A stretch of DNA of 10,107 nt, taken from the IMG/VR virus record IMGVR_UViG_2675903595_000003; one strand, given 5' to 3'. This DNA comes from a virus. Its lineage: Duplodnaviria > Heunggongvirae > Uroviricota > Caudoviricetes. The notes under the pieces were generated by a model. The model saw only the letters and a list, made by a program, of their open reading frames with translations, was not told the DNA's origin and did not search any database. Of the stretch, positions 4,530-4,980 are shown piece after piece; positions within the stretch are counted from its first letter, which is position 1; the number at the start of each line of letters is the position of its first letter. Position numbers and translations under genes: made by a program.

Positions 4530-4780
4530 TTGTAAATATCTCTTCGGACAACTTACAAAATATTCTAAGCAAACCCCGGGAACACACTCTTAACTGCCTT
4601 GGCTGGCGGTTTTTTGTACAGCGCTCGGTATGTGTGAGCTGGAAATCAGATTTTGCATGGACTGGAATCATGCTGTTATTTAGGGGCGAAGAACTGGCTT
4701 TTTCTTCCGCCTTCTCACCAGTAACGATTAGAAAAATAATGAAATGCCCCCCTCCGGGGAGGAGGACCGTAGAAAAAAGG

Positions 4781-4838
4781 ACCCGCCAGCAAAAACATTG
4801 GGGATGAACAGCTTTCGCTACTCAGATTGCTGGCGGGT
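4781..4838. repeat. perfect 12-bp inverted repeat with 34-nt spacer (candidate RNA stem-loop or protein-binding site)
   Basis: ACCCGCCAGCAA (4781-4792) and TTGCTGGCGGGT (4827-4838). The CTGGCGG motif also occurs at 4603-4609, followed by a T6 run. Confidence 0.6.
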
Positions 4839-4946
4839 AAAGTTCCTCATGAATTAAGAATGCTACGCGATCTTTTTTAATGGAAATGAAAATTATTGTC
4901 AATTAGTCGTGCGTGTTTTTTCATACAATATTGGTAAAGGTGATTC

Positions 4947-4980
4947 AGGCCATCAGAGTTTTGCTGATGGCCTTTTTTCT
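4947..4980 (+). terminator. strong intrinsic terminator immediately upstream of the holin gene
   Basis: Stem AGGCCATCAG (4947-4956) / CTGATGGCCT (4964-4973), 7-nt loop, TTTTTT (4974-4979). Only the + strand has the U tract. Confidence 0.65.

Follow-up and report, generated by a model that had tools for sequence, protein, structure and literature searches.

Conserved non-coding DNA ahead of a class II holin lysis cassette, with a probable small RNA gene opposed to the late operon

Introduction

What function, if any, resides in the ORF-poor, hairpin-rich DNA that separates a tRNA cluster from the holin gene of a lambdoid prophage? The window, by which we mean the whole 10,107-nucleotide stretch of viral DNA analysed here (IMG/VR record IMGVR_UViG_2675903595_000003), contains such an interval. 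An earlier note, made from the letters of the sequence, had called it a candidate sRNA or regulatory locus. That label survives the present analysis, but the anatomy drawn for it does not, as the evidence favors an sRNA on the opposite strand. We propose that positions 4640-5013 form the leader, non-coding and conserved, of a lysis cassette with a class II holin, and that this leader includes an sRNA gene directed against the late operon; we assign this reading a probability of about 0.6.

The window and its prophage context

Gene order and annotation searches place the window at a junction in the late region of a lambdoid prophage of E. coli. The following features frame the interval:

40-1572, DnaB-like helicase
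1826-2197, RusA
2166-2573, Q-like antiterminator, upstream of the studied stretch
2601-3016, P1-type immI-like block, directly 3' of the Q-like gene
2856-3617, ORF of the anti-repressor
from 3807, tRNA genes, after which the studied stretch comes next
5014-5229, plus strand, class II (S21-type) holin

The holin was assigned by its match to PHROG holin families (E = 3e-36) and by the RefSeq annotation of a 99.5% identical locus; it is followed by a SAR endolysin and then by terminase genes. Two runs of the window are N-masked (3991-4453 and 5389-5741). Between them, positions 4454-5388 are 99-100% identical across nine complete E. coli genomes, and in the near-identical copies RefSeq carries no annotation in the interval from tRNA cluster to holin.

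In the P1/P7 immI-like block, Rfam models match c4-a1b1 (2601-2653), isrK (2614-2690, 77.5 bits), the C4 antisense RNA (2716-2799, 71 bits) and sRNA-Xcc1 (2933-3016, 77 bits). The last of these falls in the 60 codons with which ORF 2856-3617 opens, whereas the anti-repressor matches of that ORF start only at residue 60 or later; the true start codon is therefore probably further downstream. Between the anti-repressor gene and the tRNA cluster, a hairpin of terminator type that includes T7 (AAACCCGCCGATGAGCGGGTTTTTTTA, 3696-3720) accounts for a weak Rfam Trp_leader match. A near-identical locus (L001) has tRNA-Thr and tRNA-Gly genes at the start of what is the first masked run here. The masked run is about 220 nt longer than the matching interval of L001, so the window holds something extra at this place. 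Just 3' of the mask and 5' of the first T6 terminator described below, an imperfect 24-nt inverted repeat (4455-4478 and 4506-4529, 79% complementary) could be part of a structured plus-strand RNA; Rfam returned nothing for it, and the mask conceals its 5' side.

Plus-strand terminators and reading frames of the holin leader

A terminator scan of 4454-5388 returned seven terminator-like sites, against 0.7 expected. Two on the plus strand bear on transcription toward the holin:

4592-4615, plus strand, weak intrinsic terminator (stem 4592-4611 of 7 pairs including a G-T pair; T-run 4610-4615)
4947-4980, plus strand, strong intrinsic terminator (10-bp stem 4947-4973 with 6 G-C pairs and a 7-nt loop; T6 at 4973-4978)

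Both had been described in the earlier note, the one as a weak hairpin with a T6 run and the other as a strong terminator shortly before the holin, and both descriptions hold. So does its AT-rich stretch at 4860-4940, where the GC content is 0.31 against 0.52 for the whole window.

The downstream hairpin (-17.3 kcal/mol, z = -4.1) has the G+C-rich stem-loop and succeeding T-run by which intrinsic terminators are recognized, and it lies 34 nt before the holin ATG (5014). A homologous plus-strand terminator occupies the equivalent position in prophage PP4 of E. coli E2348/69, another is annotated at the equivalent place in the phage 434 record, and a crude scan of 117 distinct class II holin leaders found a terminator-like site no more than 150 nt from the start codon in 62. 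We conclude that 4947-4980 is a genuine plus-strand terminator of a type common before class II holins. Published RNA-seq tables for E2348/69 list the holins at baseMean 3-5 and the genes just upstream at 100-2000; near-silent holins next to expressed upstream genes fit an insulating role for the pre-holin terminator. The terminator at 4947-4980 probably insulates the lysis cassette until Q-modified polymerase passes. That lysis-gene expression depends on Q-modified read-through at this site, as the earlier note had suggested, is a reasonable expectation from the established lambda model, with which the frequency of terminator-like sites before class II holins and the near-silent holins of E2348/69 agree indirectly. 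The isrK-like terminator near 2690, just 3' of Q, is likely the promoter-proximal equivalent of tR', in which case 4947-4980 would be an additional terminator for the modified polymerase to pass.

The upstream hairpin is confined to the nine genomes that share the whole region. Its 3' arm and T-run (CTGGCGGTTTTTTGT) are similar to the pre-holin plus-strand terminator of the PasA and PasC loci in E2348/69, and it probably closes the transcript of the upstream unit of tRNA and moron genes.

No reading frame of the interval is likely to be translated. The one long ORF, 4511-4807 on the plus strand (98 codons), had already been described as looking non-coding; neither it nor the minus-strand ORFs 4519-4671 and 4877-5038 has a Pfam or PHROG match, and plus-strand ORF 4913-5164 has no Pfam match. 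Further, copies of ORF 4511-4807 in homologues carry indels of 1, 2 and 5 nt, which break the frame and argue against coding.

A predicted small RNA on the minus strand

The features that point to an sRNA gene all lie on the strand opposite to the holin:

4874-4902, minus strand, predicted sigma-70 promoter (-35 TTGACA at 4902-4897, 17-nt spacer, -10 TAAAAA at 4879-4874)
4772-4867, minus strand, predicted antisense-oriented sRNA of about 96 nt (single-stranded 5' region, long terminator hairpin, U6)
4781-4838, minus strand, predicted sRNA terminator stem-loop (perfect 12-bp arms; U-run 4773-4778)
4746-4767, minus strand, second hairpin from the terminator scan, GTCCTCCTCCCCGGAGGGGGGC then ATTTCATTATTTTT, located past the sRNA terminator in the direction of transcription

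The stem-loop is the perfect 12-bp inverted repeat that the earlier note had singled out, with arms ACCCGCCAGCAA (4781-4792) and TTGCTGGCGGGT (4827-4838) separated by 34 nt. Its length is exceptional: none of 300 dinucleotide-preserving shuffles of 4454-5013 equalled it, and the longest repeat in any of them was 11 bp. The earlier note had treated the repeat as a structure of the holin strand, an assignment that we revise. No T-run follows it on the plus strand. On the minus strand, ACCCGCCAGCAA, the 34-nt loop and TTGCTGGCGGGT are followed directly by CCTTTTTTC, with T6 at 4773-4778, and a conserved -35 box for the same strand lies upstream. The 12-bp stem succeeded by CCUUUUUUC on this strand agrees with what is expected of Hfq-dependent trans-acting sRNAs, namely a Rho-independent terminator that ends in a U-run of at least 5-6 residues. 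The loop, which folds as an 8-bp helix capped by GAAA, is large for a terminator, and this counts against the sRNA reading.

The -35 element of the predicted promoter agrees with the consensus at six of six positions and the spacer has 17 nt; the -10 element agrees at four of six and lacks the final T, which weighs against the prediction. Because our consensus scan requires a T at that last position, the promoter did not appear in its output; it is predicted from the sequence and from its conservation. The inverted repeat lies about 60 nt downstream of it. Together, this promoter and the repeat with its T-run place the start near 4867 and give an RNA of about 96 nt, whose ends (5' at about 4867, 3' at about 4772) are thus predictions. 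The RNA so defined has a minimum free energy of -33 kcal/mol (z = -3.8).

The second hairpin is possibly a back-up terminator. One of its arms is the GAGGAGGA tract (at about 4759-4766) that had also been noticed earlier. The hairpin is poorly conserved: 12 of its 22 columns vary, and the length of the G-run differs among homologues. Elsewhere in the window, a minus-strand hairpin at 6858-6885 (CCGCCAGG...CGCTGGCGG), inside the small-terminase ORF, is like the core of the sRNA terminator; it scores 8.9 bits with the Esr41-like covariance model described below, and this likeness is probably due to chance.

Searches for complementary sites of the predicted RNA within the window gave duplex energies no better than those of shuffled queries, and searches of loci carrying iss or papI returned the cis-antisense site alone.

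Counterparts in E. coli E2348/69

The same arrangement recurs in prophages in which RNAs have been measured. The prophage sRNA genes pasA, pasC and pasD1 are reported in a preprint to adjoin a conserved holin-lysozyme operon (Zhu, Shabalina & Storz 2026, bioRxiv 10.64898/2026.05.13.724894). PasA and PasC of EPEC are Northern-validated, Hfq-dependent RNAs of about 80 nt; each is flanked by esterase and holin genes and is read from the minus strand, against both neighbors (Pearl Mizrahi et al. 2021, PMC8550237, table S6). We aligned five loci: the window, an 87%-identical ExPEC variant from IHE3034, and the E2348/69 prophages PP2 (PasA), PP5 (PasC) and PP4. In all five the order is an A-run, a GCCAGC...GCTGGC stem, a spacer of 60-70 nt, TTGTCAA (invariant) and a terminator on the plus strand. 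What comes next is the start of the holin gene in four of them and an IS element in the PasC locus. The predicted RNA of the window has the location of PasA and PasC, directly 5' of the holin-lysozyme operon on the opposite strand ("> < >").

The PP4 locus supplies the closest counterpart. Its minus-strand hairpin lies within a dubious coding sequence, E2348C_1013, which has a baseMean of 2064 in the published tables and falls 7.5-fold in an hfq deletion (log2FC -2.9). In the RIL-seq data it is RNA2 in all its chimeras, with the entC 5'UTR (263 chimeras), the nlpD intergenic region (537) and the dnaK 5'UTR (28) as partners. Its RNA2 segment always ends at 1060613, i.e. at the T-run right after a GCCAGCGCAGA...TCTGCGCTGGC hairpin. 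As a side observation, this annotated coding sequence (1060613-1060705 of E2348/69; L006, 2113-2202, minus strand) behaves in the published tables as an abundant Hfq-dependent sRNA, and it seemingly has no name. It gives a sub-threshold match to the Rfam model of Esr41 (32 bits; gathering score 102). The promoter core ATTGACAATAAT is nearly identical in PP4 and the window, and the plus-strand terminators of the two are related; BLAST aligns PP4 and the window in two collinear segments with E = 0.012 each. In the curated GenBank record of phage 434, three terminators are annotated in the equivalent interval, two of them on the minus strand and one on the plus strand. A crude scan found an antisense promoter-terminator unit in only 10 of 117 distinct class II holin upstream regions.

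Relationship to described RNA families

By sequence, the predicted RNA is outside every described family. An Rfam search, proposed in the earlier note as a way to identify it, returned no sRNA-family match at the predicted RNA, either in the window at E up to 1 or in 4454-5013 at E up to 10. Esr41 (RF02676; gathering score 102 bits) had no match at these same thresholds. The covariance models for AsxR, AgvB and STnc100 (PasD) readily match the comparison loci L002, L004, L006 and L156, and none of them matches in the window. With blastn, PasA, PasC, PasD1 and PasD2 gave matches of 7-14 nt to the region (E at least 0.05), as expected by chance, and an nhmmer profile of Esr41-like RNAs found nothing at the locus.

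A scan of viral contigs for the promoter pattern revealed a large Esr41-like group, the "B family", which is situated after esterase genes. It is headed by the same promoter frame and has a stem, CCGCCAGC / GCTGGCGG, with C-G, U-A and U.G variants at one position. We built a covariance model from the transcribed parts of this family and of the PP4 RNA, with the window left out. Its best match in the window was full-length (4775-4878, minus strand) and marginal, at 13 bits and an E of about 0.03 by a rough calibration. A distant relationship to the Esr41-like group is probable on these grounds, as distinct from membership in it; what the two have in common is the promoter frame, the terminator core and the position.

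Other candidates were set aside. In some islands the module lies 2 kb from papI, and PapR was therefore considered, but the PapR primers map elsewhere, in the interval from the tRNAs to the esterase gene. Neither ipeX nor the nmpC-essD spacer of DLP12 in K-12 is homologous to the region. The literature that we searched names no RNA at the equivalent position in ExPEC. In ExPEC prophages (L002, 3698-3960; L156, 2524-2903) we observed, 5' of the holin leader, a late-strand STnc100 RNA paired with a convergent AsxR/AgvB-like terminator (the PapR 3' end). The IHE3034 copy of this pair is immediately adjacent to a window-type module on its left side, with the PapR-like terminator just upstream of the module homologue.

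Distribution and conservation

Of 5426 complete E. coli genomes, 1451 carry a homologue of 4640-5013, and 643 of the places are on plasmids. On ColV-type plasmids the module adjoins iss, and in a chromosomal pap island it lies about 2 kb from papI; in both settings the holin and lysozyme genes have been deleted. The deletion end point falls right after the plus-strand terminator (window 4977-4982; L151, L153 and L154, 3001-3333). The upstream neighbors of the module vary and include tRNAs, a DNA methyltransferase gene and an AB5-toxin moron. The last was seen in an ST95 chicken isolate (L152, 233-1407), where a subtilase-family B subunit and a scabin-related ADP-ribosyltransferase form a toxin pair directly 5' of the same holin leader.

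Conservation was assessed among ten distinct variants of 84-100% identity. The -35 box and the stem arms change least: no column of the six in the box varies, and only one of the 24 columns in the arms does, whereas the flanks and neighboring segments vary at a rate of 0.3-0.7 (30-73% of columns). The least conserved part of the module is 4700-4745, where 36 of 49 columns vary. In the variant that is abundant on plasmids, an A.C mismatch interrupts the stem. RNAalifold detected no covariation in the stem across the family: all 26 of the 26 predicted pairs are invariant or show a one-sided change. As the arms are nearly invariant in the detectable homologues, the covariation test proposed in the earlier note is here uninformative rather than failed.

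Discussion

An sRNA on the strand opposite to the holin is supported by three facts: the T-run that follows the repeat on the minus strand, the conserved minus-strand -35 box, and the layout in common with the PasA, PasC and E2348C_1013 loci. In our model of the locus, the promoter at 4902-4874 would initiate a transcript near 4867 that ends at the terminator formed by the 12-bp repeat (4838-4781) and U6 (4778-4773), yielding the RNA of about 96 nt. By analogy with PasA, PasC and E2348C_1013, this RNA is most likely expressed from the resident prophage, and it would be an Hfq-bound regulator that base-pairs with host or phage mRNAs. As it is fully complementary to the late-operon leader, an additional effect in cis is conceivable after the onset of late transcription. 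On the plus strand, the weak terminator at 4592-4615 would close the upstream unit, and the strong one at 4947-4980 would halt polymerases arriving from the tRNA, moron and anti-repressor units, leaving the holin silent in the lysogen; after induction, Q-modified polymerase would pass it. The sequence features, their conservation and the layout in common with loci of measured, Hfq-bound minus-strand RNAs are observations; that the RNA is expressed, where it begins and ends, that it depends on Hfq, what it targets and that Q read-through occurs in this phage are inferences.

A bolder proposal, which we regard as doubtful, is that the RNA constitutes a genuine, unnamed family of Hfq-dependent sRNAs, present in about one-quarter of complete E. 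coli genomes and retained after loss of the lysis genes for the regulation of host genes (e.g. those for iron uptake or stress, as its Esr41-like cousin appears to do). In intact prophages, base-pairing between such an RNA and the late-operon leader may in addition set the timing of lysis. The wide distribution could instead reflect a small number of transfers and hitch-hiking with iss or with lysis genes, and need not signify selection on the RNA.

The last point leads to the alternative that survives best, namely that the interval is a decaying, non-functional spacer, perhaps a recombination joint, whose hairpins are leftover terminators and whose conservation reflects recent spread. Such an origin would agree with the lack of covariation, with the fact that all homologues are at least 84% identical, with the stem mismatch of the plasmid variant, and with the many copies in degraded prophage remnants that have one common deletion end point, as few events would produce. 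However, the conservation is patterned: the promoter box and both arms are nearly invariant beside segments that diverge by up to 28%. Further, expressed, functional counterparts occupy the equivalent position in other prophages. We therefore consider a mere spacer unlikely.

Another alternative takes the RNA to be on the plus strand, as a short or leader-derived transcript that ends at 4947-4980, with the repeat as an internal structure; the earlier note had offered such a short terminated transcript. The terminator in question is strong and conserved, and sub-threshold Rfam alignments to FopS, MicA, Qrr and isrD end on it. But these alignments, the weak ones found in 4454-5013 (E from 0.56 to 4.8), involve nothing beyond the terminator. 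The sole promoter-like site returned by the consensus scan is on the plus strand (4712-4740), but one such site is no more than the 1.3 expected from shuffled sequences, and it lies in the least conserved part of the module. Neither the scan nor reading of the sequence yielded a plus-strand promoter that could credibly drive a short RNA with its end at 4980, and the RNAs measured at the homologous E2348/69 loci come from the other strand. These considerations make a plus-strand RNA quite improbable. Finally, we give little credence to the notion that the hairpins act purely in cis on the late mRNA, controlling processing, stability or translation of the holin leader with no separate RNA gene (the sdi structure before lambda S being the comparison), for although the whole module of about 370 nt accompanies holins of this type whatever genes precede it and its stems would also form in plus-strand RNA, it persists without the holin on ColV-type plasmids and in the pap island, its T-run and consensus -35 box have meaning on the minus strand only, and the repeat is 175 nt from the start codon, past an intervening terminator.

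If the antisense-oriented sRNA is real, it would be a widespread member of the prophage sRNAs that was missed by Rfam and by the BLAST-defined Pas families. Prophage sRNAs such as Esr41, AsxR, AgvB, PapR and the Pas RNAs link acquired elements to control of host virulence, iron uptake and adhesion, and occurrence of the present module on ColV-type plasmids and in ExPEC islands gives it relevance to extraintestinal pathogens. The locus also supports a view of the class II holin leader as a slot that exchanges antisense sRNA genes, in which a common frame of promoter and terminator receives interchangeable RNA bodies and the flanking terminators keep the lysis genes silent.

Comparison with known systems

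The plus-strand terminator at 4947-4980 resembles tR' and other Q-antiterminated terminators in being an intrinsic terminator between the Q gene and the lysis genes. It differs from tR' in that it is not promoter-proximal: it lies 2.4 kb past the site near 2690 and directly before S.

Among sRNAs, the anti-sRNAs AsxR and AgvB (Tree et al. 2014, PMC4104026) and PapR (Khandige et al. 2015, PMC4546395) are Hfq-binding RNAs, convergent or antisense-oriented, of the moron region that lies downstream of PR' in lambdoid prophages; convergent sRNAs past PR' have been described for EHEC prophages (PMC4104026). The predicted RNA of the window has a like orientation, but these three are found beside a moron or STnc100 rather than the holin, and their sequences differ from it. 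PasA and PasC have the TTGACA box and the GCCAGC-stem terminator in common with the window element. They have no significant sequence similarity to it, and their upstream neighbor is a sialate esterase gene, whereas that of the window element is a tRNA cluster; a Pas family defined by BLAST, as published, would thus leave it out.

The PP4 RNA is the closest counterpart by position. Both RNAs, with predicted lengths of about 93 nt (PP4) and about 96 nt (window), end in a (C)GCCAGC...GCTGGC terminator with a T-run after it, and both are directed away from a class II holin gene that begins directly downstream on the other strand. Their bodies cannot be aligned by BLAST or nhmmer, and the short loop of the PP4 terminator contrasts with the 12-bp arms and 34-nt structured loop of the window. 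The arrangement itself is already known from convergent sRNAs downstream of PR', from the Pas RNAs and from Esr41. Any novelty would lie in the individual RNA predicted here, which is widespread and unnamed.
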